Shown: positions 1-37,730, counted from the stretch's first letter. The stretch is DNA of 64,000 nucleotides from Candidatus Forterrea multitransposorum CG_2015-17_Forterrea_25_41 (GCA_009392915.1 CP045477.1:1-64000); one strand, 5' to 3'. Made by a program: numbers and translations. The notes: generated from the letters alone by a model not told the origin.

Positions 1-1092
1 ATGCCAATTTCAAAAAAAAACATATTTTCAAATGTTAAAAACATAGAAGAGTCTATCTTTAAAGATGAACAAGTCTTTTATCCAGACTTTACTCCAGAAA
101 ACATTTTTTCAAGAGATTCACAAATTAAAGAACTTTCTTTTTCTTTAAAACCATTAATTTCAAATAAAAAAGCAAATAATTTTTTAATATATGGACCTCC
201 AGGAACAGGTAAAACTTTAACTTCAAGATTTGTTTTAGAAGAACTTATAAATTATTCTTTAAAAGTTAAATATCTATATGTTAATTGTATACAAGATAAT
301 ACAAGATTTTCTGTATTTTCAAGAATAGTTTCTTTCTTTGGAGGAATAATGCCAAGAAGAGGTCTTGCAGTTGATGAAATTTGGCAAAGAATTAAAGAAC
401 TTTTTTCAAAATCTTCTTTTTCACCAGTAATTATTTTAGATGAAATTGATAAACTTAAAAAAGAAGATCTTTCTGTACTTTTATATGATCTTTCAAGATT
501 TTCTTCAAATAATAAATATTTTACATTAATCTTAATTACAAACAATAAATCTTTTATTTTAGACTTAGATTCAAGAACCCAAAGCTCTTTATTTTTAAAA
601 GATTTAGAATTTAAAAAATATTCTTCTCAAGACCTAAAACTAATCTTAAAAGAAAGAGTTAATTATGGGCTTATTGAGAATGCAATTTCAGAAGATTTAA
701 TAGGGTATATTGCAGGATATGCAGCAATAAGAGATGGAGATGCAAGAATTGCTATTGATCTACTATATAAAGCTGCAAAGCAATCTGAAAGAGAGGGTAA
801 TTTGATGATCTCTAAAGAGGTTTTATTGTCTGTTTCAAACTTAATAGATTCTATTAAACTTAATGAAAAGATAGCTTCTCTTTCAAAAGAAGAATTTATG
901 TTTTTAAAATCTCTAAAAGAAGATCAAACAACAACAGAAGCATATTCTTCTTTAAAAGAAATTGCTCAAAGAACAAAAAGTAGATATCTTTTAAAATTTG
1001 AAAAATTAGGTTTTATTTCTTTTTCTCCAGTAAAAGAAGGAAAAGGTAATGTTAGAATAATATCTTTAAATTTTAATAAAGAATTATTATAA
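1..1092 (+). CDS. cdc6: Orc1/Cdc6 replication initiator AAA+ ATPase. The window starts exactly at its ATG, so it may be 5'-truncated.
   Basis: Walker A GPPGTGKT, Walker B ILDEID, and a C-terminal winged-helix region. Length and motif order are typical of archaeal Orc1/Cdc6. Confidence 0.8.
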   Translation: MPISKKNIFSNVKNIEESIFKDEQVFYPDFTPENIFSRDSQIKELSFSLKPLISNKKANNFLIYGPPGTGKTLTSRFVLEELINYSLKVKYLYVNCIQDNTRFSVFSRIVSFFGGIMPRRGLAVDEIWQRIKELFSKSSFSPVIILDEIDKLKKEDLSVLLYDLSRFSSNNKYFTLILITNNKSFILDLDSRTQSSLFLKDLEFKKYSSQDLKLILKERVNYGLIENAISEDLIGYIAGYAAIRDGDARIAIDLLYKAAKQSEREGNLMISKEVLLSVSNLIDSIKLNEKIASLSKEEFMFLKSLKEDQTTTEAYSSLKEIAQRTKSRYLLKFEKLGFISFSPVKEGKGNVRIISLNFNKELL

Positions 1093-1111
1093 AAAAACAG
1101 GTGATTAAATC

Positions 1112-1366
1112 ATGGGCTTTTTAAAAACTGATAAAAAAAAAGTAGAAGTTAAAGATGGAGATAAAGTAATTAAAGCTGCAGAAAAATTAGGTGTGCCTTT
1201 TAGTTGTAGAGAAGGTATTTGTGGTACTTGTAAAGTAAAGGTTGTAGATGGTTATGATAATTTAGCTGAAAAAACAAGTAATGAAGAATTTATGGATTTA
1301 AAAAAAAATGAAAGATTAATGTGTCAATGTAAACTTAAGTCAGGAGAAGTAAAAATTAAATTTTAA
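1112..1366 (+). CDS. Small 2Fe-2S ferredoxin-like protein
   Basis: CxxGxCGxC...C cysteine pattern (CREGICGTCKV ... MCQC) in an 84-aa protein. It sits next to the oxidoreductase operon. Confidence 0.55.
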   Translation: MGFLKTDKKKVEVKDGDKVIKAAEKLGVPFSCREGICGTCKVKVVDGYDNLAEKTSNEEFMDLKKNERLMCQCKLKSGEVKIKF

Positions 1367-2207
1367 TTATTTTTTTTAGTTTCTCTAAATTTCTTTTTCT
1401 TTTAAAAAGAGGATTTTTATTTTTTTGATAAACATTTTGCATTTCTTCAAAGGTTTTTTTCTTTTTAGAAATATAAATTATTCCTAAAGGCATTTTTTCA
1501 GTTTCTAAAGCTTTTAAAATTGCATTTTCTTTATTTTCTGGATTATAATCTTTTTCTAAATAATATGTGTTTTCTTTAAACCATTCAAAAGTATTTATTT
1601 TATTAAAAGTTACACATGGTTGAAGAATATCTACAATTGATAAGCCTTTATGATAAATTGCTTTTTGTAAGATTTCTTTTGTTTCTTTCAAGTCCCCTAT
1701 GTTTGCTCTAGCAACAAAAGATGCATCTAAAGAAATAGCTAGAGAAATTGGGTTTAAGGGCTCTAAAATAACCCCTGTTGTCTGAACTATAGTTTTCATT
1801 CCTTTTTTACTTGTAGGAGATGCTTGTCCTTTTGTTAAACCATAAATCATATTGTTGTGCACAATTATTGTAATATCTGGATTTCTTCTAATAGCATGTA
1901 AAAAATGATTTCCACCTTCTCCATACATATCTCCATCTCCACTTGTAACAATTACTTTTAAATCAGGATTAACAGCTTTAATAGCGGTTGCAGGAGGAAG
2001 TGATCTTCCGTGAAGTCCATTAAAAAAATTTGTATTAATATATTGTGGTGTTTTTGCCGCTTGTCCTATTCCTGAAACTAAAACTATATTTTCTGGTTTT
2101 AGTTTGGTTTCTTCTAGTACTTTTTTTAAAACTAAGTGTATTCCAAAATTTCCACATCCAGGGCACCATGCAATTTCTGTTTGGTTTGAAAAATCTATTT
2201 TGTTCAT
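1356..2207 (-). CDS. porB: 2-oxoacid(pyruvate):ferredoxin oxidoreductase beta subunit (TPP-binding)
   Basis: N-terminal CPGCGNFGI motif and a GDG TPP-binding region. It lies immediately downstream of the alpha-type gene on the same strand. Confidence 0.8.
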   Translation of the reverse strand: MNKIDFSNQTEIAWCPGCGNFGIHLVLKKVLEETKLKPENIVLVSGIGQAAKTPQYINTNFFNGLHGRSLPPATAIKAVNPDLKVIVTSGDGDMYGEGGNHFLHAIRRNPDITIIVHNNMIYGLTKGQASPTSKKGMKTIVQTTGVILEPLNPISLAISLDASFVARANIGDLKETKEILQKAIYHKGLSIVDILQPCVTFNKINTFEWFKENTYYLEKDYNPENKENAILKALETEKMPLGIIYISKKKKTFEEMQNVYQKNKNPLFKRKRNLEKLKKIIKI

Positions 2208-2210
2208 ATT

Positions 2211-5093
2211 TTAATCTAACCTCTCTGTTATTTCTTGCATGACCTCTTCTACAAAGAATTGCAATCCATTATATTTTAATATTTTAATAACTTCTTTATT
2301 TGTTTCTTTTTTAATAAGTTCTGCAAATTGCCCTGTTGCATTTCCTTCAATAACTATTATTTTTTTTGCAGATTTAAGTAAGTCTTTTGTTCCAGGATAA
2401 ATTGGATATAATTGTTCATAATGAAGATATTTTATTTTTTTATTATCTATTTTTTCAACAGCTTCTTTAATTGTTTCAAAAGTACTTCCCCATCCAATAA
2501 TAATTATTTCATTACCTTTTCCAATAATTGTTGGCTTTAAACTTTCAAAAGTTATATCTTCTATTCTTTTTAATCTTTTTTTAACCATTTTAATTCTTAA
2601 AGAAAAATCTTCTGTAATATGTCCTGTTTGGTCATGTTCGTCACTATCCACACAAACTAAACCTTTTCCAAAGCCAGGGATTGCTCTAGGGGAAATTCCA
2701 CTTTCTGTAAAAGCATATCTTTGATAATCTTTTTTACTTTCTATAATATATTTTTCTTTATCTTCTTTTATTTCTATTTTTTCAAAAGGATAAAGATTTT
2801 CCATAAAATATTGATCTGTTAATATAAAAACAGGAATTTGGTATTTTTGAGAATCAATAAAAGCTTTGTTTGTAATCTCTACAGCACTTTTTAAATTTTT
2901 AGGAGCATATACAATTCTTGCAAATTCTCCATGTCCAGCGTGCATAACTAAATTTAAATCTTCTTGAGCTGTTCTTGTTGGAAGTCCAGTTGCAGGTCCT
3001 GGTCTTTGAGCTACATGTATGACTAATGGAGTTTCTATCATTCCTGCAAGGCTTACACCTTCACACATAAGTGCAAATCCTCCACCAGATGTGTTTGTAA
3101 GTGATCTTGCACCTGCAAAAGATGCTCCTAAACACATGTTTATTGCTGAAATTTCATCTTCTGCTTGTTCTACAATAATATCAAAATTTTCTCTTAATTT
3201 TGCTAGATTTTGTAAAACACCTGTTGATGGTGACATTGGGTATGCTGATATAAAATCACACCCTCCAGCAATTGCTCCGTATGCTATTGCTTGAGCACCT
3301 GTAAATAAATTATTTAATTTTATTTGTTTATTTTTTTTAATTTTTGGTAAATTTTTAACTATTTTTAAAATTTCTTTTCCTTTTAAAATACCTTTTTCTG
3401 CTGCTTGAATATTTTTTAAAACAATTTCTTTTCCTTTTTTTGAAAAACTTTCTTTTAGTTGTTTTATAAAATATTTTTTATTAATATTTAGTATTCCTAA
3501 AAGAGTTCCTGTTGCAACAGTGTTTGCAAAAACTTTATTTCCTATTTTTTCTGCAATTTCTTTAAAGGAAACATCAATTGTTTTATTTTTAAGCCCTAAT
3601 TTTCTAACTTCTTCTTTATTTCCAATAATAATTGTATTTTCATCAATTCTTTCTTTTAAATGTTCTATAGTATTTTTATCTAAAGCAAGTAAAATATCTA
3701 TTTTTTTTAAATTTCCTCTTCTTTCTTTTTCTGTAAGTCTAATAGATATGGTGTTAACTCCTCCTCTAACTCTTGACATATATTCAGAGTTTGAAGAAAA
3801 GTAAAAACCTTCTTCTTTAAGTATTTTAAGTAAAACATTTTGAACAGATACAAGACCTTGGCCTGCTTCTCCAGAAAGTACAATTGATAATTCTTTTTCA
3901 TCTATTTTTTTATTTTTAATTTCTTTTTTAAAAAGTTCTTTTGTTTTTTCAGTAATTATCTTTGAAAATTCATTTAATTTTTTAAAGTTTTCTTTTTTAG
4001 GAATTCCTGTTGAAATTTCTCCTAAAATAACTTCTGCTTCAAAATTATTTGTAATATTTTCAAATTCTTTAAAGGCTTCCCCACCCCATTCTTTAGATCC
4101 AATAAATCCAATAATTTTTGTTTTTGGTTTTAATTTATTTAAAGTACTAACTGTTGTTGAAACAATAGGGTGAAGCCCACCTAAAAAAGTAGGAGATGCT
4201 ATAATTAAAGTTGACGCATCTACCATTTCAATTGCAAGTTGTCCTATCTCTGTAGTTGTAAGATTATATTCTTTAACTTTATTGCCTTGGTTAATAAGTT
4301 TAGAAGTTAAATATTCAACCATTTTTTTTGTACTTCCGTGCATAGAAGTATACCCAATAATTATTTTTGGTTTGGTTTCTTTTTTTGACCAATTATAGTA
4401 TTTATCAATTATCCAATCAACATCTTGGTATATTTTTCCATGACTTGGAGCTATTATTTTTGGATTATATTCTTTTATTTTTTCTAAGTTTTTAAGAATA
4501 TAATTTCTAAAAGGCATCATTATTTCTGCATAATATCTTTTAGCAGGTAATTCTATTTCTTTTGTATCTTTAACAAATAATTCGCTTGTTGCAAGATGTG
4601 CTCCAAAAAAATCACAAGAAAACAAAATTTTATCTTCTTTTAAAAAAGTAGACATAGTTTCTGGCCAATGAACCCAAGGAGTATAAATAAATTTTAAGGT
4701 TTTATCTCCTAAGCTAATTTCTTCTAAGTCTTTAATAACTTGTATTCTTTTTTCCTCAATTACCATTTCATCTAAAAGTATTTTTTTACAAAGAGGATTA
4801 CAAATTAATTTTGCTTTTGGAAATTTATTTAAAATTATAGGTATTGATCCAGAGTGATCTTGTTCTGCATGATTAGATATAATATAATCTATATTTTTAA
4901 TATTTAATTTTTCTAAGTTTAAAATAAGTTCTTCTGTTTTTGTAATGTCAACAGTGTCTATTAAAGCTGTTTTTTTAGATCCAATTATTAAGTATGAATT
5001 GTAGCTAGTTCCATCTGGAAGATAGATTAGTTCATCAAAAAGCTTTCTATCCCAATCAATGGCTCCAACTGAATATATGTTTTTCTTAATCAT
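2211..5093 (-). CDS. Fusion protein: flavodiiron protein (metallo-beta-lactamase + flavodoxin) fused to 2-oxoacid:ferredoxin oxidoreductase gamma-alpha
   Basis: The N-terminal ~400 aa have the HAEQDH di-iron motif of the MBL fold and a flavodoxin segment (IIGYTSMHGSTKKM). The middle part is PorG-like (LSGEAGQG). The C-terminal ~390 aa are PorA-like (GAQAIAYGAIAGGCDFISAYPMSP). It is a single uninterrupted 960-aa ORF. Confidence 0.7.
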   Translation of the reverse strand: MIKKNIYSVGAIDWDRKLFDELIYLPDGTSYNSYLIIGSKKTALIDTVDITKTEELILNLEKLNIKNIDYIISNHAEQDHSGSIPIILNKFPKAKLICNPLCKKILLDEMVIEEKRIQVIKDLEEISLGDKTLKFIYTPWVHWPETMSTFLKEDKILFSCDFFGAHLATSELFVKDTKEIELPAKRYYAEIMMPFRNYILKNLEKIKEYNPKIIAPSHGKIYQDVDWIIDKYYNWSKKETKPKIIIGYTSMHGSTKKMVEYLTSKLINQGNKVKEYNLTTTEIGQLAIEMVDASTLIIASPTFLGGLHPIVSTTVSTLNKLKPKTKIIGFIGSKEWGGEAFKEFENITNNFEAEVILGEISTGIPKKENFKKLNEFSKIITEKTKELFKKEIKNKKIDEKELSIVLSGEAGQGLVSVQNVLLKILKEEGFYFSSNSEYMSRVRGGVNTISIRLTEKERRGNLKKIDILLALDKNTIEHLKERIDENTIIIGNKEEVRKLGLKNKTIDVSFKEIAEKIGNKVFANTVATGTLLGILNINKKYFIKQLKESFSKKGKEIVLKNIQAAEKGILKGKEILKIVKNLPKIKKNKQIKLNNLFTGAQAIAYGAIAGGCDFISAYPMSPSTGVLQNLAKLRENFDIIVEQAEDEISAINMCLGASFAGARSLTNTSGGGFALMCEGVSLAGMIETPLVIHVAQRPGPATGLPTRTAQEDLNLVMHAGHGEFARIVYAPKNLKSAVEITNKAFIDSQKYQIPVFILTDQYFMENLYPFEKIEIKEDKEKYIIESKKDYQRYAFTESGISPRAIPGFGKGLVCVDSDEHDQTGHITEDFSLRIKMVKKRLKRIEDITFESLKPTIIGKGNEIIIIGWGSTFETIKEAVEKIDNKKIKYLHYEQLYPIYPGTKDLLKSAKKIIVIEGNATGQFAELIKKETNKEVIKILKYNGLQFFVEEVMQEITERLD

Positions 5094-5159
5094 TCTAGAG
5101 TCTATATATAAAACACCTCATAATAAAAAAAAGAAAAATAGTTTTTTTAAAATAAAAAA

Positions 5160-5912
5160 CTATTCTTGGTCAACTCTTGGTGCTAAGAAATATCTAATAG
5201 CAGAAGAGCCGATTGTGTAATTAATTTCAAGTGGCATATCGTCTTTAAGTTTTAAAGTGATTATGCTTTTTGCATTCTTAATCATATTTTGTAAATAGTC
5301 TAAAGTATACATTGCTTTTGCTTTGCTTCCTGAAATTAAAAGATTATTATCATTTGCTTCAATCTCTTGTTTGAATTTCCCTTTACTACTTTGTGTTTCT
5401 AAATAAAATTTATTATTTTCAACTTTTAAAGTGATATGGGAGCTAAAAAGACTTGCATCTTTTAAACCTGCAAGTAATTGATCAGAAGAGATTTGAACTG
5501 TTACATCAAATTGTATTTTAGGAAGAGGTTGTTCTTGTTCTGATACATCTATTAAAGGGATATGGAAGCTTCTTTTTGATTTTCCAATAAGTTCTATTAA
5601 GATAAATGATTTATCATCTTTAATTTCTAAACTTAATTTATCGTCACTTGATGAGTGGTTTAAGATTTGTAAGAAATTATTTATATTTATTCCAAAAGCA
5701 ATATTTTTTTCATCATCTTTAATATCTACTAAAAATTCTTCAAATGAATCTTTTGGCATTACAAAATCAACTAAACTTATTTGTCCAGGATCTGTTGCTC
5801 TTAAAAACATTTTTTCACTATCGATTGTAAATAAACCTTCGTTTATTAATACTCCAATAGCATCCATACTTTTTTGGAATTCTTTTACATCTTTTATTAT
5901 TAATTTAATCAT
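5160..5912 (-). CDS. pcn: DNA polymerase sliding clamp PCNA
   Basis: 250 aa, with a PCNA-like N-terminus (MIKLIIKDVKEFQKSMDAIGVLINEG...) and two-domain organisation. Confidence 0.75.
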   Translation of the reverse strand: MIKLIIKDVKEFQKSMDAIGVLINEGLFTIDSEKMFLRATDPGQISLVDFVMPKDSFEEFLVDIKDDEKNIAFGININNFLQILNHSSSDDKLSLEIKDDKSFILIELIGKSKRSFHIPLIDVSEQEQPLPKIQFDVTVQISSDQLLAGLKDASLFSSHITLKVENNKFYLETQSSKGKFKQEIEANDNNLLISGSKAKAMYTLDYLQNMIKNAKSIITLKLKDDMPLEINYTIGSSAIRYFLAPRVDQE

Positions 5913-5976
5913 CTTTAAATCTCCCCCTTAGCTAATATATTATATAAGCGATAATATTAAAATACTAATCATTTGT

Positions 5977-6495
5977 TTATAAAACTAATAATACATAAAC
6001 CCAACCTAATATTAAAACTACTCTTATTAAAAAAGATTGATCTAATACTTTAAATAACCAAGAAAGTATTAAAATTAGAATAGTTAAAGGAAGTAGTAAT
6101 ATCTTATAAAACCACTTAAACAAAGATTGTTTCAATCTGTAGCTTTTTTTTACAGAATCAAAAATGTTATTTGCATCTTGTCTTGAAGGTATTGAAAAGA
6201 AAAGCGCTGATATTGAAACCCATATAATTAATAATTTATAAATTAAAATCATTTCTTTTTTTAAAAGCAAAATTCCTATTATGGCTATTGCAATATTAAA
6301 AAAGAACGGAAATATAGAAATTATTATATTTTTATAAGATCTAGATTCATCATGAACTACATAACCATCTGAAAAACTAAATAATTTAATTTTTCTAATC
6401 CTTACTCCTAAAATAATACATGCAAATGCATGTGCAAGTTCATGGATAGTAATTCCAATAAATAATATTTTGGAAATAAAAACATTAAGGTTCAT
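5977..6495 (-). CDS. Small polytopic membrane protein with an HExxH motif, a putative membrane metalloprotease-like protein
   Basis: HELAH motif within a transmembrane helix and several hydrophobic segments. Confidence 0.35.
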   Translation of the reverse strand: MNLNVFISKILFIGITIHELAHAFACIILGVRIRKIKLFSFSDGYVVHDESRSYKNIIISIFPFFFNIAIAIIGILLLKKEMILIYKLLIIWVSISALFFSIPSRQDANNIFDSVKKSYRLKQSLFKWFYKILLLPLTILILILSWLFKVLDQSFLIRVVLILGWVYVLLVL

Positions 6496-6497
6496 AA

Positions 6498-6887
6498 TTA
6501 TTTTTTCTCAATATATATTTTTTTATTTTCTTTTCTAAAGAGGATTGTTTCTTTTTTAATTTCTCTAAAATCTACTTTAATTTCAATATTACTTTCTAAA
6601 AAATATTCTTTTTCTTCATTTGATATTTTATATTTTGAATCTATTTTTTCAATAGTCCATGTCTTTTTAGGTAATGCTTGAATCTCTTCAGAATAATTTT
6701 CTAATATTTCAGAAATATCTATATTTCCTTGTAATTTTTCAGAAAAACTTTTAATCTCTCTATTATCTATTATTTGCATATTTTTAGAATAAAGAGAGGT
6801 TGCTTGAATAATAATTAAGGAAAGCACAACTACAATAGAAAGCGATATTAAGATATACTCTAAACTAACTTGTGCTTTTTCATTCAC
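6498..6887 (-). CDS. Type IV pilin-like protein with a class III signal peptide
   Basis: The N-terminus MNEKAQVSLEYILISLSIVVVL is typical of archaeal prepilin/archaellin-like class III signal sequences. Confidence 0.45.
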   Translation of the reverse strand: MNEKAQVSLEYILISLSIVVVLSLIIIQATSLYSKNMQIIDNREIKSFSEKLQGNIDISEILENYSEEIQALPKKTWTIEKIDSKYKISNEEKEYFLESNIEIKVDFREIKKETILFRKENKKIYIEKK

Positions 6888-6901
6888 AGTTAATTTTTCC
6901 T

Positions 6902-7093
6902 TTAGTCTATTTTTTCTATTTGTTTAAACACATCATCTGCTTTGTCATCAACAGTTTTATTTGCTTTAGTTGTTGTTTTTTGTAACTGTGTTACAACTAC
7001 TAAAACTATAGCGATTATTGCAGCTATTAAAATTATCATTTCAGCAGAAATTTGTGCTTTTTGATCTTTAAATAAATATTTTAATTTATTCAT
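6902..7093 (-). CDS. Small type IV pilin-like protein with a class III signal peptide
   Basis: The N-terminus KAQISAEMIILIAAIIAIVLVVV is pilin-like, in a 63-aa protein. Confidence 0.45.
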   Translation of the reverse strand: MNKLKYLFKDQKAQISAEMIILIAAIIAIVLVVVTQLQKTTTKANKTVDDKADDVFKQIEKID

Positions 7094-7169
7094 AATTCTT
7101 CAAATAATTTATTGGTTATAAGATTATTTAAACCTTTTGTTCTTTATTTTTATTAAATATAATTAATAA

Positions 7170-7919
7170 ATGATTATCATGCAAAGATTAATAATTGTAA
7201 CTGGTGCAACTGGTGATTTAGGTAAAGAATATGTGAAAGTTTATTCCAAATTATCAGAAAATAAAGTTTATGCTATTTCAAGGCGAAAAGAAGACTTTCC
7301 AATAGAAGGTGTAATTTATCTTAATTGTGATTTAGAAAATAAAGATATAACTTTAAATGAAATTAATAAAATTTCTTTAGAGCACACCACTGAAATAGTA
7401 TTTATTCATCCTGTTGGAAAATTTAAGTTTGAAGAAAATGGAGACTTAATAAATAGTATTGATCAAGAAATATTTAAATCTAATTTAGATAGTTTTCATA
7501 ATGTTTTAAACCCTTTATTATTATTAAGAAAAGATAAAAATATTTTAATTAAATTAATTGCTTTTGGATCTTTAAGTGATTCTTTTAATGTACCTTGGTG
7601 GATTTCTTATAGTAAATCAAAACTTGCACTGAGAGCTGATATGAAGTCAATTTCTTTTTCTAAAAAAAATATTTGTTCTCTTTTTTTAAATTTAAGTAGT
7701 GTGAAAACTTTTAATGAACATAAAACAAGACCTTTTGCAGAAACTTCTTTTTGGCTTTCAGTTGATGAAATTGTAAAGAGATCTTTATCTATAATTGATT
7801 CTTTAAAAGAAAAATATACTGAAATTAATTTATATAATAATTCTCCTGAATATTATGAAGGTTATTACAAAGATTTTAATTTTTTAAAAGAAAAATGGTT
7901 AAAAGAAATGAAGGGCTAG
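7170..7919 (+). CDS. Rossmann-fold short-chain dehydrogenase/reductase-like protein
   Basis: N-terminal VTGATGDLGKEY dinucleotide-binding motif. Confidence 0.4.
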   Translation: MIIMQRLIIVTGATGDLGKEYVKVYSKLSENKVYAISRRKEDFPIEGVIYLNCDLENKDITLNEINKISLEHTTEIVFIHPVGKFKFEENGDLINSIDQEIFKSNLDSFHNVLNPLLLLRKDKNILIKLIAFGSLSDSFNVPWWISYSKSKLALRADMKSISFSKKNICSLFLNLSSVKTFNEHKTRPFAETSFWLSVDEIVKRSLSIIDSLKEKYTEINLYNNSPEYYEGYYKDFNFLKEKWLKEMKG

Positions 7920-7934
7920 AAGTCTTCTTTTTAT

Positions 7935-10253
7935 TTGTTTTTATCTATAATATATATATTTATGATTAAATCAATATATCTTGAAAATTGGAAAACCCAC
8001 CTTGATTCTAAGCTTTCCTTTCAAAAAGGAACAAACATACTCTTAGGTGTAATTGGTTCTGGAAAATCAAGTGTTGTTGATGCTATTTGTTATGCTTTAT
8101 ATGGTACATTTCCAACACTTTCAAACAGGAAAATAACTTTAGATGAAACTATAATGTTTAAACCTGTACAAAAAGAAAGTTTTAAGGTTATTTTAGAGCT
8201 TGTTCAAGAAAATAAATTATATTTAATAGAAAGAGAAGTATTTTCTGGAAATAAATCAAACTCTGCAAAAGTATATCTTGAAGGAAAGTTATTGGCTGGT
8301 CCTAAAAAAAGTGATGTTGATGAATTTATTTCAAAACTTTTAGGTATTGATTATAATCTTTTTATAAAAGTTGTATATTCTCAACAAAATGAAATTGATT
8401 ATTTTTTAAAAATAGCTCCTTCTAAAAGAAAAGAACAGTTTGATGATCTTTTTGGTATATCTCATTTTGAAAATATTAAAGTTTCAACAAGAGAAATTGA
8501 TAGACTTTTAAATCATGAAATTGATAAAAATGAACTTTTATTAAAACAAATAACTACTCAAATTTCAAATTATAATATAGAAGAACTTTTAGAAAAAGAA
8601 AAAGAAATAGCTGAAAAAATAACTTCTCTTGAAAAAGAAATTTTAGAAAAAGAAGTAAAAACTTTTTCTTTAAGTAAAGTAATTTCTGAAAAGAAGCTAG
8701 TTAAAGAAAAGCATGAATCCTTAACTTCTCAAATATCTTTATTTTCGTCCAGGCTTGAAGACTTTAATAAAGAATATACCTCTCTTTTAGAAAAAACTAA
8801 TCTTTCTTCTAAAGAAGAACTTGATCTCTTTGAAAAAGAGGTTTTTAAGAAAGAAAAATTCTTTAAAGAAAAACAAAATAAAAACAAAGAAACTGAGATT
8901 TTAAAAAAATCTTTAGATAACAAAATTTCTTTTTATGAAAATAATATTTTTCAAAACCAAGAAAGGATAAAAGAGCTTCTTTTAAAAATAGAAAAAGAAG
9001 AATTAACTATTCCTTTAATAGAGGAAAAGAAAAAATATCTTTTAGAAGAAATTGATTCTCTTAATATTTTAAAAATATCTTTACTTTCAAAACAAAAAGA
9101 TTTAGAAAAATCTTTTTATGAAATTTCTAAAGGCTTTTCAAACTGTCCTGTCTGTCAAACCCCTTTTACTGCAGATAAATTAACTGAAACTAAAGAGCAT
9201 ATAGATAAAGAGCTTTCAAGTCTATCTTTAAACCTAAAGGATTATTTAGAAAAAATAAAAGAAAAAGAAGATTTATTAAATCTGTTAAAAATAAAAGAAA
9301 AAACTTTAGAAAGAAATTTCTTAATTGAAAAACAAATTGAACAATTAAACAAAATAATTCTAGAAAATACTTATTTAAAAGAAAATGCCTTAACTGAAAT
9401 TAATTCTTTAGAAAAAATAGATGACTTGTCTGCTTTAGAAAAAGAAATTTTAAAAATAAAAGAGAGTCTTTCTCTTAAAAAAGAACTTTTAAAAATATCT
9501 GAAAAAATAAAAGAATACACCGAAAAAACAAAATTACAAAAAGAAGAGCTTTCAAAAATAAATTTTTCTCAAGAAGAATATCTAAATCTTTTAACAGATT
9601 ATAAAGGCTTAGAAAATAATTTCCTGCAAATAAAAGAATCCTTAACAAACTATAAATCCTTAAAAGAAAATTTAAAAAAACAATTAGAAAACCTAACCTC
9701 TCTTTCAAAACAAAAAGAAGAAGTAAGCCTTTCTTTTACAAAAATAAATAATAAAAAACAAGATCTTTCTTATTTTTTAAAAGCAATTGATAATAGCCAA
9801 CTACAGTTAAGAAAAGTTTTAATAGATAACATAAATCAAGCTCTTTCAATCATCTGGCCAAAAGTATATCCTTACAAAGATTATTTATCAGCAAGATTAA
9901 ATGCAGATAATGATTATATCTTAGAGGTCTTAACTTTAAAAAATAACTGGATAAGGGTTGAAGGTTTATTAAGTGGAGGAGAGAGGGCTTGTGCTTCACT
10001 TTCCATAAGGATTGCAATTTCTTTGATTCTTACAAAGAAATTAGGCCTTTTAATTCTTGATGAACCAACACATAATTTAGATGAAAAATCAATAGAGGCT
10101 TTATCAAATGTCTTAGAGGAAGAGCTTCCTGATCTTGTTGAGCAAATATTTATTGTGACTCATGATAATAAGCTTCTTGAAACAGTAAATGCAACTAAGT
10201 TTATAATAGAGAGAGATAAAGAAAACGATTCTGCTTCAAGAGTTAATTTTTAA
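7935..10253 (+). CDS. rad50: DNA double-strand break repair ATPase Rad50 (SMC-like)
   Basis: N-terminal Walker A (GVIGSGKSS), long coiled-coils, a central zinc hook CPVCQ, a C-terminal signature LSGGER, and Walker B LLILDEPT with D-loop. Confidence 0.85.
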   Translation: MFLSIIYIFMIKSIYLENWKTHLDSKLSFQKGTNILLGVIGSGKSSVVDAICYALYGTFPTLSNRKITLDETIMFKPVQKESFKVILELVQENKLYLIEREVFSGNKSNSAKVYLEGKLLAGPKKSDVDEFISKLLGIDYNLFIKVVYSQQNEIDYFLKIAPSKRKEQFDDLFGISHFENIKVSTREIDRLLNHEIDKNELLLKQITTQISNYNIEELLEKEKEIAEKITSLEKEILEKEVKTFSLSKVISEKKLVKEKHESLTSQISLFSSRLEDFNKEYTSLLEKTNLSSKEELDLFEKEVFKKEKFFKEKQNKNKETEILKKSLDNKISFYENNIFQNQERIKELLLKIEKEELTIPLIEEKKKYLLEEIDSLNILKISLLSKQKDLEKSFYEISKGFSNCPVCQTPFTADKLTETKEHIDKELSSLSLNLKDYLEKIKEKEDLLNLLKIKEKTLERNFLIEKQIEQLNKIILENTYLKENALTEINSLEKIDDLSALEKEILKIKESLSLKKELLKISEKIKEYTEKTKLQKEELSKINFSQEEYLNLLTDYKGLENNFLQIKESLTNYKSLKENLKKQLENLTSLSKQKEEVSLSFTKINNKKQDLSYFLKAIDNSQLQLRKVLIDNINQALSIIWPKVYPYKDYLSARLNADNDYILEVLTLKNNWIRVEGLLSGGERACASLSIRIAISLILTKKLGLLILDEPTHNLDEKSIEALSNVLEEELPDLVEQIFIVTHDNKLLETVNATKFIIERDKENDSASRVNF

Positions 10254-16297: not shown

Positions 16298-18844
16298 GTG
16301 TTTTTTATGGATGATGCAAATTTAATGCTTTTAAAAAAGAAAGTAAAAGCTATAAAACAATATAAAGGCCAAGGTACTCAACTTATAAGTCTTTATCTTC
16401 CACCTGATGCAGATAGAAGTTCTGCAACAAAACAATTAACTGATGAAATGAGTCAATCTTCAAATATTAAGAGTGCTCAGACTAGAAAAAATGTACAAGC
16501 AGCTTTAAAAAGAATTATTAATTATTTAAAACAAATTGATTTTAAACTTCCTGAAACAGGTTTAGTTTTATTTTCTGGAGATGTTTCAACTAATCCTTCT
16601 AAATCAGATGTAATTTTACTTGCAATTGCACCTCCTGTAAGACTTACAACTAAGCTTTATTGGTGTGATTCAACATTTCACATAGCTCCTTTAGAAGATA
16701 TGGCACAAACAGATGATGTTTATGGTTTAGTTGTTCTTGACAAACGAGAAGCAACAGTTGCTATTTTAAGAGGAAAATCTAAAGAAATTCTTTTTTCAGA
16801 AACCTCAAATGTTCCTGGTAAAACAAAAGCCGGGGGGCAATGTTTAAAAGATGCTTTTGTATCTTTATCTGATGGGAATTTAATAGATGTTAGTGAAATT
16901 TCTAAAAAGGATATTCTTTCTTCTATGAATTTTAAACAAAATAAATTAATTAATTCTAAGGTTTTAGATAATTGGTCAGTTTCTAAAAATAAAACATATA
17001 TTATTAAAACAAAAGCTCCTGGTACAGAAATAAAAGCTAGTGAAGATCATATATTTTTTGTTTTAACTCCAGATGGTGTTGTTGAAAAAGCTTCAAAAGA
17101 TTTAACTTTAAATGATTATTTGTTATTTCCAGAAAAATTATCTTATAAAAATAAAATTTGGTCTTTTGATACTAAAAAATATATTTCTAAATTAAATAAA
17201 CCTTCTATAAAGATACCTATAAAACTTAATAATGTATTTGCTAAATTTTTAGGTTATTTATTAGGTGATGGTTCTATTGAAACTGATAGATTAACTTTTT
17301 ATGAATCTAGAAAAGATGTTATTTTAGAATATAAAAAGTTATTTGATAAATATTTTAATGTAAATTCTTCTTTAACTTTTAGAGATTCTAAAAATTATTA
17401 TCAATTAAGAGTTAATTCAACTGCTCTTGTAAGATTAATTAAAGAAGAATTTAAGGAAATTAAAAAAGCAAGAGATTCTTTAATACCTTCTAAAATATTA
17501 ACTTCTTCTAATAAAATATTAGCTAATTTTTTAAAAGGATTTTATGATGCTGAAGGTTATATTAATACTTCTAGAAAATCAATAGATATTGGAATAAATA
17601 ATAAAAAAATTGCACAACAACTTCAATTATCATTATTAAGATTTTCAATTATTGGATCTTTACAAGAATATGATAATAAACAAAATCCTTATACAAATAA
17701 CCATAGGTTTGTGATTTCAATTTCTGATAAAGAGTCAATAGATTCTTTTGAAAAAAATATTAATTTTACTTCTTTTGAAAAGCAAAAAAAAATAAAAAAA
17801 ATTCAAAAATTAAAAACAAACATGAGTTTCTCAAGAACACTTCCTGTATATGGTAGTCAGGTTAGATCTGTTGTTACAAAACATGGTTATAATTTAGAAC
17901 TTTTCCCAAAAGTGAGTAGTTTTTTCAATAATAATAGAATGCTTAGTAAATGCTTTTTTAAAAGTTCTGTTTTAGATTATGTTAAAGATAAATCTCTTTT
18001 AAAAGATTTAATTAAATTTTATAATATGCCATTTTTTGCTGCAAAGATAAATTCTATATTTATTGAAAAAAAGAAAACAATTATGACAGACATTTCTGTT
18101 GCTAATAAATCTTTTATTGCAAATGGATTAATTGTTCATAATTCAGCACATAGATTCGAAAGACTAAGAGATAAATATGAAGAAGAGTTTTATAAGAGAG
18201 TAGGTTCTAAAGTAAATACTGCTTTTGTAGATCTTGATAATTTTAAAGGAATGATTGTTGGTGGTCCTGGACTTACTAAAAATGAATTTTTAGAAATTGG
18301 TGATTTAGACCACAGAATAAAAGATAAAGTTTTAGGAACTGTAGATACTTCTTATACAGATGAGTCAGGTATAAAAGAAGTTTTAGATAAATCTGAAGAT
18401 ATTTTAAAAGAAACTGGTTTAGTTCATGAAAGAAAATTAATTAATAAGTTTTTTGAAGACTTAGCAAAAACAGGCCTTGCAAATTATGGTTTTCAAGATG
18501 TAATTGATGCCTTAAATATTGGTAAAGCTTCAACTGTTTTAGTGTCTGAAGGTTTAGAATGGACTGTTTTAATTTTTAAATGTTTATCAGACAAATCTAG
18601 ATTTATAAAAATTGTTAAAGATAAACATGAAGTTTCTGATACTATCTCAAAATTTGAAAATTCTCCAACAGATTGTCCAGAAGGTAAAGCAGAACTTGTT
18701 GAAGAAGTTGATATATATGATTATTTTATAGATATTTCTAAAAATACAAGTGCAAAAGTTGAACTTATTTCTATTGAAACTTTAGAAGGTAAACAATTTT
18801 TTGAAACTTTTGGAGGGCTTGCAGCTTTCTTAAGATATAGGTAA
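16298..18844 (+). CDS. prf1: Peptide chain release factor aRF1 interrupted by an in-frame intein
   Basis: The exteins (181 + 233 aa) have the aRF1 architecture, including the catalytic GGQ followed by SAHRFERLR. A 434-aa insertion begins with Cys and ends with His-Asn, followed by Ser. Confidence 0.8.
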   Translation: MFFMDDANLMLLKKKVKAIKQYKGQGTQLISLYLPPDADRSSATKQLTDEMSQSSNIKSAQTRKNVQAALKRIINYLKQIDFKLPETGLVLFSGDVSTNPSKSDVILLAIAPPVRLTTKLYWCDSTFHIAPLEDMAQTDDVYGLVVLDKREATVAILRGKSKEILFSETSNVPGKTKAGGQCLKDAFVSLSDGNLIDVSEISKKDILSSMNFKQNKLINSKVLDNWSVSKNKTYIIKTKAPGTEIKASEDHIFFVLTPDGVVEKASKDLTLNDYLLFPEKLSYKNKIWSFDTKKYISKLNKPSIKIPIKLNNVFAKFLGYLLGDGSIETDRLTFYESRKDVILEYKKLFDKYFNVNSSLTFRDSKNYYQLRVNSTALVRLIKEEFKEIKKARDSLIPSKILTSSNKILANFLKGFYDAEGYINTSRKSIDIGINNKKIAQQLQLSLLRFSIIGSLQEYDNKQNPYTNNHRFVISISDKESIDSFEKNINFTSFEKQKKIKKIQKLKTNMSFSRTLPVYGSQVRSVVTKHGYNLELFPKVSSFFNNNRMLSKCFFKSSVLDYVKDKSLLKDLIKFYNMPFFAAKINSIFIEKKKTIMTDISVANKSFIANGLIVHNSAHRFERLRDKYEEEFYKRVGSKVNTAFVDLDNFKGMIVGGPGLTKNEFLEIGDLDHRIKDKVLGTVDTSYTDESGIKEVLDKSEDILKETGLVHERKLINKFFEDLAKTGLANYGFQDVIDALNIGKASTVLVSEGLEWTVLIFKCLSDKSRFIKIVKDKHEVSDTISKFENSPTDCPEGKAELVEEVDIYDYFIDISKNTSAKVELISIETLEGKQFFETFGGLAAFLRYR
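16841..18142 (+). mobile_element. Intein with a LAGLIDADG homing-endonuclease domain inserted in aRF1 between Gln181 (of GGQ) and Ser
   Basis: N-terminal Cys, C-terminal VHN with a +1 Ser, and two LAGLIDADG-type blocks (FLGYLLGDGS and LKGFYDAEGYI). Confidence 0.75.
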
Positions 18845-23625: not shown

Positions 23626-24737
23626 AATTGTGTTGCATAACTCTTTTTAAAAGTATTGTCTAACCTATTTTATTACTAGATAAAGGAGGTTAGACAATAT
23701 GAATATTAAGAACGAAAAGATTAATAAAAGGAACTGGTCAAAGATAAATTATGGAAAAACAAGACAAATCTTGTTTTTACTAGATAAAAACATTATTTTT
23801 AGTGAAAATGAAAGACTAGTTTCCCAAAATAAAAACAAACCAGGAAGACAATTTATATATAGTGATAGAATAATAGAACTATTAATTGATCTTAAAAATT
23901 ATTTTAAATTTGATTATCGTAAACTACAGGCATTCTGCCTGTTGTTTAATAATGTTATAAAAATAAAAACACCTGACTTTACAACTATTTGTAGAAGAAT
24001 GCACAAATTAGAATTATTTCTAAAAAATATAAAAACAAAAAAAGAACCAACCTTTATAGCTATAGATGGTTCTGGACTTCAAACTACTAATCGAGGAGAA
24101 TGGCTTAGATTAATACACAAAAAAGGAAAAATAAACTTAAGAAATGGATTTGTAAAATTAGTGATTGCAACAGATGTTGCATCTGGAGAAATAACTGGAG
24201 TGTATATTTCAGATGATTCTGATTTTGAAAATAAAAGCTTATCAGATTTATTATACCAAACAATAAATAATCAAAACCAAGAAGTCAAAGGACTTCTTGG
24301 AGATGGGGCATACGATTCTTATGATAACTTTGATATGCTTGATGATATGGGAATAAAACCAATTATCAAAATCAGAAAGAATGCAATTACAACAGAACCT
24401 AATGACGATTATTTAAAAAGAAGAAGAAAACTTGGAAAAAAGAAAAAAATAAAAAGAATTGAAGTTGCAAAAAAGCAACTTAAAAATGTAGATGACTGGA
24501 AACAAAAAAATGAGTATAATAAAAGGTGGGTTGTTGAATACACGTTTAGTGTATTCAAAAGACTATTCGGACATAGTGTGTACTCTAAAAGAAAGAAATA
24601 TGTCAAAAATGAAGTAATTTCTAAAGTAAATTTGTATAATAAATTATTAAATATCAATTAAGAAAAAAATAAAATGAATTAAAAAAAGAAATAAGCTAAA
24701 AATATTGTGTAAAACACAATATTTGTGCAACACAATT
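23626..24737 (+). mobile_element. IS5-family-like insertion sequence
   Basis: Perfect 12-bp terminal inverted repeats aattgtgttgca at 23626-23637 and, reverse-complemented, at 24726-24737, extendable to ~17 bp. They flank a single DDE transposase ORF. Flanking T-rich sequence is consistent with an ~8-bp target duplication (ttttttat). Confidence 0.65.
23699..24661 (+). CDS. DDE transposase (IS5/IS4 superfamily)
   Basis: Catalytic blocks IAIDGSG, LGDGAYDS and VVEYTFSVFKRLFG, the E-containing block typical of IS5-family transposases. Confidence 0.65.
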   Translation: MNIKNEKINKRNWSKINYGKTRQILFLLDKNIIFSENERLVSQNKNKPGRQFIYSDRIIELLIDLKNYFKFDYRKLQAFCLLFNNVIKIKTPDFTTICRRMHKLELFLKNIKTKKEPTFIAIDGSGLQTTNRGEWLRLIHKKGKINLRNGFVKLVIATDVASGEITGVYISDDSDFENKSLSDLLYQTINNQNQEVKGLLGDGAYDSYDNFDMLDDMGIKPIIKIRKNAITTEPNDDYLKRRRKLGKKKKIKRIEVAKKQLKNVDDWKQKNEYNKRWVVEYTFSVFKRLFGHSVYSKRKKYVKNEVISKVNLYNKLLNIN

Positions 24738-24818
24738 TTTTTTATCTTTTTTAGTTACATTTATAAATATAATCTTCTTTAATATTAGTACCTTATATAT
24801 ATTATACTCAGATCATTT

Positions 24819-26192
24819 ATGGCTATAGACAAAAGATTTTTTTTAGGGATAACTATTAGTAAAAAAAGAAAAGCAATTTCTCCTTTAATTGCCACTATTC
24901 TTTTAATAGTTGTTGCCGTTGCAATTATAGCTATTATTGTTTCCTGGGGAAAAGGATTTACCAATGATTCTTTAAGCAAAGCCTCTGGTCTTGAAATTTA
25001 CACTGAATCAGAAACTTCTTTTTACTTGCAAGTAAAAAATTCAATAAACGGAAGAACTGTTGTTCAATATAATCCTCCTTATAATTCTCCTCACACCTCT
25101 TTAACCATAACAGGTTATAGCCTACATGGTAACACGAATATTAATCCCATAGATCCACCAATTACAATAACTGCAAACCAAACTGCAGTTATTGATCATG
25201 GTATTTTATTTCCAGAATTAAATTTAGTTTTATATTTGGATAATGATCGAATGATTATTAAAACTGATCTTTTACAAACTATTAAATCTCCTCTTTCTTG
25301 TCCAGAAGGTTATGTTTCTGTTCCAGGAAACCACTTATATGGAACTATGAATGAAAGTGGGGGTTTTTGTGTTTCAAAATATGAGATGAAAATGGATAGA
25401 ACAGGAGATGGAATAGGAAATCTTGTAGCTGATTATCCTGATTGTAACACCGGTTCTTTAACATATAATACTTATAGTTATGAATTATGCCCTACACCAG
25501 GCACTTTAGTTTCTACTCCAGAAGGTTCTCCCATAGCAAGAATCACACAAACTGAAAGCATATCAGCCTGTGAAGCTATTGGTGGTCATTTAATAACAAA
25601 TAACGAATGGATGACCATTGTACGAAACATAGAACAAGTTCCATCTAATTGGTCAGGTGGAGCAGTTGGTGATGGCTACCTTCCAAGAGGGAATTCATCT
25701 TCTTCAGGAGCTATGGAAGGCTTTGATCAACTTTCAGGAACTACCAAAAGAACCTTGACCTTAACAAACGGAGAGGTAATTTGGGATTTAGCAGGAAATG
25801 TAAGACAATGGACCAGTGACACTATTCAAAGAAAGGACCAGCCTGATGGTTTTAATAATGTAGATGATAGTAATAATACTTCTGGTTTTAATTGGTTTGA
25901 TTATTTTAAGGGCGGTGGAGTAGATCAATATATTTATTCTGATAATTTAGGTAACACCACCTTAAAGTATAAAGATTTATTTTTATTAACTAGTAATACT
26001 TATAATGCAACAGATAATGGTGTTGGAAGGATTTATACTTATAGTGATTTTAGTGATACTAGTACAACTGAGTACGCGTTTTTGCGCGGTGGTCACTGGG
26101 GCAATGGCACTAATGCCGGGGTCTTGCACCTGGTCTTGAACAAGACTCCTGGGTCCCGGAGCATCCTCATCGGCCTGCGCTGTGTCAAGTAG
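24819..26192 (+). CDS. DGR target (variable) protein: pilin-like surface protein with a C-terminal FGE/C-type-lectin-fold domain
   Basis: N-terminal class III signal/archaeal pilin-like segment KKRKAISPLIATILLIVVAVAI. FGE/DUF1566-type motifs GGHLITNNEWMTIV, GNVRQWTSD, and a C-terminal FLRGGHWGNG...GLRCVK coinciding with the VR repeat. Confidence 0.8.
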   Translation: MAIDKRFFLGITISKKRKAISPLIATILLIVVAVAIIAIIVSWGKGFTNDSLSKASGLEIYTESETSFYLQVKNSINGRTVVQYNPPYNSPHTSLTITGYSLHGNTNINPIDPPITITANQTAVIDHGILFPELNLVLYLDNDRMIIKTDLLQTIKSPLSCPEGYVSVPGNHLYGTMNESGGFCVSKYEMKMDRTGDGIGNLVADYPDCNTGSLTYNTYSYELCPTPGTLVSTPEGSPIARITQTESISACEAIGGHLITNNEWMTIVRNIEQVPSNWSGGAVGDGYLPRGNSSSSGAMEGFDQLSGTTKRTLTLTNGEVIWDLAGNVRQWTSDTIQRKDQPDGFNNVDDSNNTSGFNWFDYFKGGGVDQYIYSDNLGNTTLKYKDLFLLTSNTYNATDNGVGRIYTYSDFSDTSTTEYAFLRGGHWGNGTNAGVLHLVLNKTPGSRSILIGLRCVK

Positions 26193-26195
26193 TTT
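26075..26195 (+). repeat. DGR variable repeat (VR) at the 3' end of the target gene
   Basis: The 121-bp GC-rich segment matches 27300-27420 at 108 of 121 positions. 12 of the 13 mismatches correspond to adenines in the other copy. Confidence 0.85.
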
Positions 26196-26498
26196 TTAGA
26201 AAAAATATATTTCATCCCCAAACCATGTATTTAGACGGGTGAGACGGCAAGACGGCCAGACGGAAGAAGCCATGGCAACCTAAACGTTTCAAGATTGTTT
26301 TTGCAAAAAAATGAAAAAACGTATTTGTGAAGTTTTAAAAAAAAGAAATGAGTGTGATTTTTGCAAATTTTTTTGATTTTTTTCAAAAAAATTTGCTAGC
26401 CGTTAAACCAAATGGTTTTTTAATGTAAAAATAATTTTTATAATAATTAAGTTTTAAAGAAAAAATACTTTATATCTTGGACAAACAATGTGATTTAA

Positions 26499-26885
26499 AT
26501 GAGTTTAGTTGGAAATGAAAAAGGAATTCTAAATTTTGGTGTTTACAAGGAGCTTTTCCCAATCGTTATTGAAACTTATAATTTTTTAGAAAATAATAAA
26601 TCTTTATTTAAAGTAGATTTTGTTTATACAGATACTGTTAAAAATTTAATAGATATTCTTTCTTTTCTTTCCAAAGGGTATAATAAATTTCATTCTAATG
26701 AAAAATCTTTACTTTACTCTTATTCAAGAGATTGTGTTTCTACAACCCAATCTAATCTTTTAATATTATCTGAACTTAATAAAGATCTCTCAAAAGAAAA
26801 AACCTTATATTTTTATAATCAATTTGAGGATAAAATAAAGTATTTTAATGGTTTAATAAAAAAGATTGAAGAAAATAAAAACTAG
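26499..26885 (+). CDS. Hypothetical protein located between the DGR target and avd
   Basis: 128-aa ORF of unknown function within the DGR cassette. Confidence 0.3.
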   Translation: MSLVGNEKGILNFGVYKELFPIVIETYNFLENNKSLFKVDFVYTDTVKNLIDILSFLSKGYNKFHSNEKSLLYSYSRDCVSTTQSNLLILSELNKDLSKEKTLYFYNQFEDKIKYFNGLIKKIEENKN

Positions 26886-26896
26886 GGTATATTATT

Positions 26897-27226: not shown

Positions 27227-27299
27227 ATATTTTTTCAACTAATAGTTATGTTGTTCTTTTAAATAAAAAGAATAGGGCTTTTACAGAAAAAAACAGGTG

Positions 27300-27420: not shown

Positions 27421-27422
27421 CT

Positions 27423-37699: not shown

Positions 37700-37730
37700 C
37701 TTTATCTTTTAAAATATAGGAATTTTTATT

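Follow-up and report, generated by a model that had tools for sequence, protein, structure and literature searches.

In the first 64,000 nt of sequence CP045477.1 (GCA_009392915.1) of Candidatus Forterrea multitransposorum CG_2015-17_Forterrea_25_41, the stretch of DNA analysed here and called the window, a single open reading frame (ORF) of 960 amino acids without interruption (positions 2211..5093, minus strand) joins a flavodiiron protein (FDP) in frame to the alpha subunit of a 2-oxoacid:ferredoxin oxidoreductase (OFOR). Together with two adjacent genes, one for the OFOR beta subunit and one for a small plant-type [2Fe-2S] ferredoxin (Fer2), the fusion gene probably specifies a soluble, self-contained 2-oxoacid:O2 (possibly nitric oxide, NO) oxidoreductase, a reading built on comparison of sequences and gene neighbourhoods. 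Residue numbers refer to the 960-aa fusion protein and nucleotide coordinates to the 64-kb window.

The ORF scan, Pfam and NCBIfam agree on the layout of the fusion, and the coordinates and content given by an earlier sequence-only reading (a complete FDP with an HxExDH motif and a flavodoxin domain, followed by PorG- and PorA-like regions) were correct. The FDP core spans residues 2-389 and the OFOR alpha part residues 401-960. All on the minus strand, the modules are a metallo-beta-lactamase-like diiron domain (~residues 1-240; 4374..5093; PF19583/PF00753; pLDDT >90), a flavodoxin-like FMN domain (~residues 241-389; 3927..4373; identified with Pfam, NCBIfam, alignment to solved FDPs and a confident model), a polar and charged linker (~residues 390-400; 3894..3926) that is predicted to be disordered (pLDDT <50 at residues 390-398), the gamma-like domain III of OFOR alpha (~residues 401-590; 3324..3893; PF01558), and its domains I and II (~residues 591-960; 2214..3323; PF01855 and PF17147, with alignment to 5b48_A). 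The corresponding Pfam matches are ODP/metallo-beta-lactamase at 29-219 (2.7e-27), flavodoxin at 245-322 (the domain as a whole, with NCBIfam, at ~244-378), POR (gamma / domain III) at 410-569 (2e-30), POR_N (domain I) at 606-838 (2.4e-56) and PFOR_II at 862-942. The “gamma-alpha” label of the sequence-only reading is accurate as to the presence of domains III, I and II; these are simply the ordinary alpha subunit of two-subunit OFORs (TIGR03710), and only the FDP-alpha junction is unusual. Base composition (~22-32% GC) is even across the region, with no break at that junction. The AT-rich 66-nt spacer upstream of the fusion gene contains several TATA-like runs, none of which can be assigned with confidence as an archaeal promoter.

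The FDP half has the diiron ligand set, an FMN domain directly following the metallo-beta-lactamase domain and a predicted FDP fold, which by sequence and model identify it as an FDP. Residues 2-384 match the flavorubredoxin-type FDP of NCBIfam (2e-69), and the PF19583 score is 96 bits (cutoff 27). Across 20 aligned fusion proteins (mean column identity of 54%, divergence down to 48% identity), all seven diiron ligands (H75, E77, D79, H80, H142, D161 and H218) are invariant. So are Y248 and H252 of the FMN loop (Y248-T-S250-M-H252-G253-S-T255) and, further along the FMN domain, W336-G337; conservation of the loop residues S250, G253 and T255 is 90% or higher. The SMHGST section of the loop aligns with the loop of solved FDPs, the closest of which by sequence are Moorella FprA (1.6e-64), Desulfovibrio gigas ROO and the methanogen F420H2 oxidases. 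A single-chain AlphaFold2 (AF2) model, computed from the 20-sequence alignment (mean pLDDT of 81.7; FDP core >90), superposes in its FDP half on 1YCF (Moorella FprA) and 1E5D (D. gigas ROO) with a TM score of 0.90 and an rmsd of 2.0-2.1 Å.

The other half, at residues 402-955, matches TIGR03710 (2-oxoacid:acceptor oxidoreductase alpha) with 613 bits against a cutoff of 482.75. This generic subfamily model is the only one whose cutoff the alpha half passes: pyruvate-specific models were not passed (PorA_Arch, 64 bits against 550), and Oxoac_fdxalpha_Archa and the KorA-type equivalogs likewise stayed far below their cutoffs. In the domain III motif GEAGQG (408-413), G408, A410, G411, Q412 and G413 are invariant in the 20 fusions, as is the YPITP-type motif YPMSPST (618-624), which aligns with the YPITP of Sulfolobus tokodaii OFOR (StOFOR). 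R697, also invariant, aligns with the substrate-carboxylate residue Arg344 of StOFOR (5b48_A). StOFOR (2.2e-73) and Magnetococcus marinus OGOR (MmOGOR; 4.7e-67) are the closest solved alpha subunits by sequence, and the alpha half superposes on 6N2N_A (OGOR alpha) with a TM score of 0.82. Both halves of the fusion look catalytically competent, since the diiron ligands, the domain III and YPITP-type motifs and the substrate arginine are invariant in 20 divergent fusions and the modelled folds match those of solved FDPs and OGOR. A Foldseek search against solved structures returned no chain spanning both the FDP and the OFOR halves.

The spacer between FDP and alpha varies from 72 to 295 residues across homologues. 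That of the window is the shortest of the clade, those of relatives being up to 223 residues longer and always polar, charged and of low complexity; judged from these sequences, the linker would behave as a flexible tether rather than as a rigid interface. One close homologue (P0002, 98% identical) lacks 18 residues of domain III located between two KGKEI repeats, a deletion for which slippage or recombination at short direct repeats could account. Other N-terminal fusions occur in the same alpha subfamily: P0152 (857 aa) and P0161 (830 aa) carry a cytochrome b5 and a DUF2231 membrane domain, and P0233 an extension of ~300 aa with no Pfam match. The cytochrome b5 of P0152 and P0161 suggests that electron-acceptor modules have repeatedly been attached at the alpha N-terminus.

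A search of 5.8 billion proteins, clustered at 90% identity, yielded the same four-domain in-frame fusion in ~22 clusters with 45-100% identity, from NCBI, JGI, ENA and Logan assemblies. P0001 is identical to the window fusion and P0003 is 94% identical. Several fusions lie on long contigs (0.33, 0.41 and 1.29 Mb), with up to 10 contigs for one protein, and the named carriers are labelled Candidatus Woesearchaeota or Nanoarchaeota. Public databases label these proteins only as “2-oxoacid:acceptor oxidoreductase subunit alpha” or “hypothetical protein”. Thus, the same fusion, for which the sequence-only reading had advised looking in related genomes, does exist there, and none of these relatives has a stop codon at the junction. 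A sequencing or assembly artefact (a frameshift or a chimera) falsely joining two genes has a negligible probability: in-frame fusions come from four data sources, composition is uniform and the alpha and FDP trees give the same subclades. The only apparently split relative is P0013 (87% identity; alpha only, on a 2.2-kb contig). There, the reading frame runs unbroken from the FDP C-terminus across the junction into alpha, and the sole stop codon is found 7-9 nt away from the end of the contig; we therefore rejected P0013 as an unfused close relative and regard it as a gene-calling artefact at the contig end.

An exhaustive HMMER pass over 1.84 billion representatives at 50% identity found just two fusion representatives (P0014 and P0020), the other strong matches being alpha-only or FDP-only, and hence the architecture is real but confined to a narrow clade. 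Indeed, in a scan of 185,579 species-representative genomes, the fusion occurred among the best 80 hits in only one metagenome-assembled genome, of a woesearchaeote. In rough neighbour-joining trees without support values, the fused alphas form one clade with two subclades, and the FDP tree recovers the same subclades. The fusion appears to be maintained by selection, because it is always in frame in ~22 clusters despite linker differences of up to 223 residues and because its alphas form one clade.

The gene for the beta subunit (1356..2207, minus strand; 283 aa with a TPP-binding domain) begins 3 nt past the stop codon of the fusion gene. It scores 462 bits with PRK11869 (cutoff 438) and has PF02775, PF12367 (PFO_beta_C) and the thiamine pyrophosphate (TPP) motif GDGD...NN. 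The protein contains only three cysteines (15, 18 and 198) and departs from the four-ligand [4Fe-4S] pattern CxxC...GIGC...C: the canonical third ligand, in the SGIGC of StOFOR and MmOGOR, is replaced by Gln (SGIGQ, within SGIGQAAK). The same replacement is seen in loci L002-L007 and is a subfamily-wide trait that includes unfused bacterial members; the whole OFOR subfamily may thus, on sequence grounds, carry an atypical cluster, either 3-Cys or [3Fe-4S]. That the missing third cysteine is an adaptation to the fusion was ruled out, as the unfused betas of Firmicutes and Petrocella share it. The FNR extension found on the betas of relatives is absent from the window beta.

Fer2 (1112..1366, plus strand; 84 aa; PF00111 with 56 bits against a cutoff of 21) is convergent with the beta gene and overlaps its 3′ end by 11 nt; the sequence-only reading was right that both genes adjoin the fusion. 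The ligands C32-x4-C37-x2-C40...C71 are conserved in seven orthologues, and orthologues are 48-61% identical to the Fer2 of the window whether they are free or fused to a beta-FNR protein. Fer2 is adjacent or fused in all seven fusion loci examined (the window, L091, L002, L088, L089, L003 and L004), and it was found in none of 78 unfused OFOR loci, nor at the unfused bacterial loci L005-L007.

Gene neighbourhoods and local alignments revealed one set of modules in four arrangements. In arrangement A (L090), a free Fer2 stands beside a single-chain FDP-FNR (P0044, 658 aa), and there is no OFOR. Arrangement B (L002, L088 and L089) consists of FDP-alpha, a beta extended with an FNR-like FAD/NAD(P)-binding module (513-546 aa) and a free Fer2, while in arrangement C (L003 and L004) FDP-alpha is followed by a single chain of beta, FNR and Fer2 (631-680 aa), in which a long low-complexity linker joins Fer2 to beta-FNR in the manner of a swinging carrier domain. 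Arrangement D, comprising the window and its syntenic relative L091 (74%), has FDP-alpha, a plain beta and a free, convergent Fer2. The FNR module is recognised by the motifs GGTGITPF and CGPPxM; the window and L091 loci lack it, and none was found elsewhere in the 64-kb window (best tblastn E ~1). Compared with the beta-fused FNR of L088, that of P0044 shows 52% identity (E = 9e-104); the FDP half of P0044 is 56% identical to that of the window, and L088 and L090 have upstream neighbours in common (Fer2 and RNase_T). In the FDP tree, the FDP-FNR proteins P0044 and P0048 nest beside the P0014-P0016 fusions. An alpha|beta cassette may have been inserted between FDP and FNR, or FDP-FNR may have arisen through its deletion.

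Since Fer2 also accompanies the FDP-FNR of L090, where there is no OFOR, these loci indicate that Fer2 is the probable electron donor of the FDP in this lineage. Its role as a shuttle is suggested by its occurrence in every fusion locus examined and in the FDP-FNR system, as the necessary link there between FNR and FDP, and by its tethering in arrangement C. Single-chain proteins of FDP with FAD_binding_6/NAD_binding_1 (623-658 aa) are P0044 (L090 3052-5399), P0048 and P0201, with a 2Fe-2S ferredoxin adjacent. Other FDP fusions, with FDPs 39-50% identical to that of the window, are found in P0052, P0056 and P0063: FDP with ScdA_N and hemerythrin, FDP with an EamA transporter, and PALP with FDP.

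Unfused members of the OFOR subfamily (alphas 45-52% identical) occur in Planctomycetota, Atribacterota, Bacillota, Endomicrobia, Methanobacterium, Thermoplasmatota, Asgard archaea and Candidate Phyla Radiation (CPR) bacteria. At least one gene for defence against O2 or reactive oxygen species (ROS) lies in the flanks of 26 out of 80 loci, by a raw tally without a formal genomic background: rubrerythrin at 18, often immediately upstream of alpha, and FDP, superoxide reductase (SOR), peroxiredoxin and flavin-reductase-rubredoxin at nine each. Judged by general gene frequencies, this association looks far above chance. At L046 (Sedimentisphaerales; 1-8600), genes for peroxiredoxin, FDP, desulfoferrodoxin, rubrerythrin, flavin-reductase-rubredoxin, G6PD, a further rubrerythrin and Ni-SOD precede OFOR alpha and beta; at L078 (Endomicrobium; 2800-8533), FDP, DUF4019, SOR and rubrerythrin precede them. 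The alpha-beta pair also stands at the end of oxidative-stress islands in L029, L083, L074, L059, L076 and others. The FDPs of three planctomycete loci are 51-52% identical to the FDP half of the window. In L064 (687-4923; uncultured bacterium), a stand-alone FDP and an unfused alpha-beta pair form a possible unfused counterpart of the arrangement; this locus was rejected as a full-length fusion match, its separate FDP gene lying 459 nt upstream of the pair. The link of the 3-Cys-beta OFOR subfamily to oxidative-stress islands suggests a general, overlooked role as a source of reductant for O2/ROS defence in anaerobes.

In the electron path that we propose, oxidation of a 2-oxoacid and CoA would take place at TPP, where alpha and beta meet, and electrons would pass from TPP through the single Fe-S cluster of beta to Fer2, a mobile one-electron carrier. 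Fer2 would then reduce the FMN of the tethered flavodoxin-like domain, and electrons would go on to the diiron site of the partner FDP monomer, which in the head-to-tail homodimer of FDPs is next to that FMN; there, O2 would be reduced to water (or NO to N2O). The flexible tether would fix the ratio of FDP to OFOR at 1:1 and keep an O2 scavenger next to the O2-sensitive enzyme. We assume a dimer, (FDP-alpha/beta)2, because FDPs and OFORs are both two-fold symmetric dimers. Such a system could serve both as a redox vent for a fermentative archaeon without a respiratory chain and as a local protection of OFOR from O2. In relatives with an FNR module, Fer2 could also exchange electrons with NAD(P)(H), which would open an oxoacid:NAD(P)+ route (PNO-like) and an NAD(P)H:O2 route. 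As the window and L091 lack that module, OFOR is the only source of reductant encoded with Fer2 and FDP here. Oxoacid couples lie at about -500 mV, 2Fe-2S ferredoxins at about -300 to -420 mV and the FMN and diiron sites of FDPs much higher, so that the flow would be strongly downhill. Sequence comparison establishes the gene and domain layout, the intact catalytic residues, the conserved fusion, the constant company of Fer2 and the shuffling of modules with an FNR-like reductase; which way and by which route electrons flow, from what substrate and to what acceptor, as well as the quaternary structure, we infer.

The sequence-only reading had supposed that the fusion couples pyruvate oxidation directly to O2 or NO detoxification and may protect the enzyme. 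Comparative genomics backs both a probable coupling of oxoacid oxidation to O2/NO reduction and a possible protection of the enzyme; the coupling is probably not strictly direct, the transfer more likely going via Fer2, and the sequence establishes neither pyruvate as the substrate, its specific models staying below their cutoffs, nor O2 as against NO as the acceptor. The 64-kb window holds almost only informational genes, and no other O2/ROS genes were found in it; the fusion system may be both the redox vent and the main O2 defence of this archaeon.

Three other accounts of the fusion deserve attention. The FMN domain of FDP could dock on beta and take electrons straight from its Fe-S cluster, Fer2 then serving another purpose. 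The short linker of the window, with ~10 disordered residues, would suit such direct wiring, as would the cytochrome b5 tethered to the same alpha N-terminus in P0152 and P0161; flavodoxin is an established acceptor of OFORs and of pyruvate:ferredoxin oxidoreductases (PFORs), as Pfam family names reflect, and free flavodoxin accepts electrons from pyruvate:flavodoxin oxidoreductases. However, a fixed docking geometry sits badly with the linkers of relatives, which reach ~230 disordered residues, AF2 predicted no inter-domain geometry, and Fer2 is present not only in all seven fusion loci but also with FDP-FNR, whose donor and acceptor already share one chain; we therefore consider direct wiring improbable. 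It is similarly unlikely, in our estimation, that NO rather than O2 is the acceptor, which would make the complex an oxoacid-driven NO reductase for nitrosative stress. The positions studied for selectivity are D52 and S262 of Escherichia coli flavorubredoxin (the PDB holds the mutants D52K and S262Y). D49 of the fusion aligns with D52 of this NO-selective enzyme, an acidic residue being in the majority at that column, and the best NCBIfam match among FDP models is “anaerobic nitric oxide reductase flavorubredoxin”, though far below its cutoff. On the other side, H252, invariant in the SMHGST loop, has its counterpart in the TMHGST loop of the O2-reducing F420H2 oxidases; the structures nearest in sequence or fold are those of Moorella FprA, ROO and FprA; and related unfused OFORs have O2/ROS genes (SOR, rubrerythrin, peroxiredoxin and superoxide dismutase) as neighbours, not NO-related ones. 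Moreover, several FDPs reduce both substrates, so that NO reduction is compatible with an oxoacid:O2 oxidoreductase.

Alternatively, the two halves could merely be co-localised: FDP would act as a bodyguard removing O2 near OFOR, with electrons coming from elsewhere, e.g., from NAD(P)H via FNR and Fer2. Most relatives do have the FNR-like NAD(P)H module on beta, and the existence of FDP-FNR with Fer2 but no OFOR implies that a chain from NAD(P)H through Fer2 to FDP is sufficient alone. This explanation is nevertheless quite unlikely, given that neither the window locus nor L091 has the FNR module, none occurs in the 64 kb and no other reductant-generating enzyme is encoded nearby, while Fer2 reduced by OFOR is, from general knowledge of the potentials, thermodynamically able to reduce FMN.

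Several points weigh against the oxoacid:O2 oxidoreductase that we favour. The evidence for its mechanism consists of comparative genomics, sequence and models. The beta subunit lacks a canonical Cys ligand, so that the type and potential of its cluster cannot be read from the sequence, and the two selectivity positions give a mixed signal, D49 being of the NO type and H252 of the O2 type. Electrons could run between NAD(P)H and Fer2 instead in those relatives, the majority, that carry an FNR-like module. Fer2 is encoded on the other strand, with orc1/cdc6 immediately upstream of it, and its co-transcription with the operon is not demonstrable. In the AF2 model (pTM 0.56), the orientation of FDP relative to OFOR is not defined, and the segment 644-709 of domain I, which contacts beta and TPP in real OFORs, is poorly modelled, so that cofactor distances cannot be derived. 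The roughness of the trees and the raw character of the 26/80 tally count on the same side.

A broader hypothesis seems somewhat less likely than not. Woesearchaeota-like DPANN would carry a soluble, hitherto unrecognised “2-oxoacid oxidase” supercomplex, (FDP-alpha/beta)2 with a 2Fe-2S shuttle, that allows a fermentative cell lacking a respiratory chain to use O2 as an electron sink without conserving energy and so raises the yield of acetyl-CoA and of ATP from substrate-level phosphorylation; 3-Cys-beta OFORs would be a dedicated, O2-tolerant source of the low-potential electrons with which many anaerobic archaea and bacteria detoxify O2 and ROS through FDP, SOR and rubrerythrin. For DPANN archaea, with a tiny genome, minimal metabolism and no respiratory chain, a vent from oxoacids to O2 would explain redox balance and microoxic tolerance. 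A compact, oxoacid-driven water-forming oxidase would also be of interest for enzyme engineering.

The window harbours further features of note. An intein containing a LAGLIDADG homing endonuclease domain interrupts the gene for the archaeal release factor aRF1 (16298-18844, plus strand). At 23699-28695 (plus strand) come, in this order, genes for a DDE transposase (23699-24661), an FGE-sulfatase-fold protein (24819-26192) and an RVT_1 reverse transcriptase (27679-28695); the latter two together resemble a diversity-generating retroelement. Three clustered tRNA genes lie at 37618-38286, the last overlapping the called start (38262) of a Trp/Tyr-tRNA synthetase-like ORF, and a lone 5S rRNA gene occurs at 55212-55328 with no 16S or 23S gene nearby. 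An AMP phosphorylase-like gene (50783-52288, plus strand; Glycos_transf_3 / PYNP_C) is among the very few metabolic genes besides the OFOR-FDP cluster.

The nearest solved relatives of the OFOR moiety, StOFOR1/2 (S. tokodaii, 5B46-5B48) and the M. marinus OGOR (6N2N), share with the window the III-I-II order of alpha, the YPITP-type motif with the substrate Arg, a beta with TPP and a single Fe-S cluster, and the absence of a delta or ferredoxin domain. They differ in that the window alpha has an N-terminal FDP of 400 aa and its beta a Gln for the third cluster Cys, and the ferredoxin adjoining the window genes is a plant-type 2Fe-2S protein, the partner of Sulfolobus OFOR being a dicluster-type ferredoxin. 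In PNO of Euglena and Cryptosporidium, PFOR is fused to a module like NADPH-cytochrome P450 reductase. The beta-FNR(-Fer2) proteins of relatives (L002-L004, L088 and L089) likewise join an oxoacid oxidoreductase to a flavoprotein acceptor module; PNO, however, is a single-chain PFOR with 2x[4Fe-4S] and a C-terminal diflavin reductase, and has no FDP, while the window beta has no FNR.

In published classifications, multidomain FDPs form classes B-H (nine classes in the latest count) and append rubredoxin, short rubredoxin, NROR, flavin reductase or Fer4_19 (PMC6033852; bioRxiv 10.1101/2024.04.03.587993). None of these published classes appends an OFOR subunit or an FNR-like module: the fusion, whose appended domains are PF01558, PF01855 and PF17147 (OFOR alpha), fits none of them, and FDP-FNR is likewise absent from the lists. 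Full-text literature searches (flavodiiron with oxoacid, PFOR, fusion, Woesearchaeota, DPANN) returned no description of an FDP-OFOR fusion; the sequence-only reading had called the architecture unusual. If the proposed electron path is true, a primary catabolic enzyme would here for the first time be the covalent partner of an FDP, in place of an NAD(P)H or rubredoxin module, and both the FDP classification and the OFOR superfamily would gain a new architecture.

Multidomain FDPs are self-sufficient water-forming oxidases, such as the class F FDP-Rd-NROR of Trichomonas vaginalis, Clostridioides difficile and Histomonas (PMC9364112, PMC6033852, PMC12528894). The window fusion resembles them in having an N-terminal FDP core with modules of the donor chain after the flavodoxin domain, in what would be a soluble, self-sufficient terminal oxidase; in contrast, it appends a TPP-enzyme subunit of 560 aa, its reductant would be an oxoacid instead of NAD(P)H, and its carrier would be a separate 2Fe-2S ferredoxin, not rubredoxin. 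The physiological donors of many FDPs are unknown, and for class E (FDP-Fer4_19) no electron donor could be found (bioRxiv 10.1101/2024.04.03.587993); the fusion points to a chain of OFOR and 2Fe-2S ferredoxin that is testable for one lineage. A catabolic dehydrogenase physically coupled to an FDP, with soluble venting of electrons to O2, is also encountered in the complexes of Bcd-EtfA-Rd fusions with a class A FDP, where butyryl-CoA oxidation is coupled to O2 reduction (summarised in PMC12528894). As described there, these complexes are bacterial and non-covalent and use a rubredoxin-like carrier with acyl-CoA dehydrogenase/Etf chemistry, as opposed to the TPP/Fe-S chemistry of OFOR. Lastly, plant-type ferredoxin-1 powers cyanobacterial Flv1/Flv3 (bioRxiv 10.1101/2023.05.19.541409). 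These are class C FDPs with a flavin-reductase domain, their ferredoxin is reduced by photosystem I and they are not fused to a ferredoxin-reducing enzyme; yet, as in the system proposed here, the direct donor put forward is a plant-type [2Fe-2S] ferredoxin, and the FDP that it serves reduces O2 to water as a safety valve.

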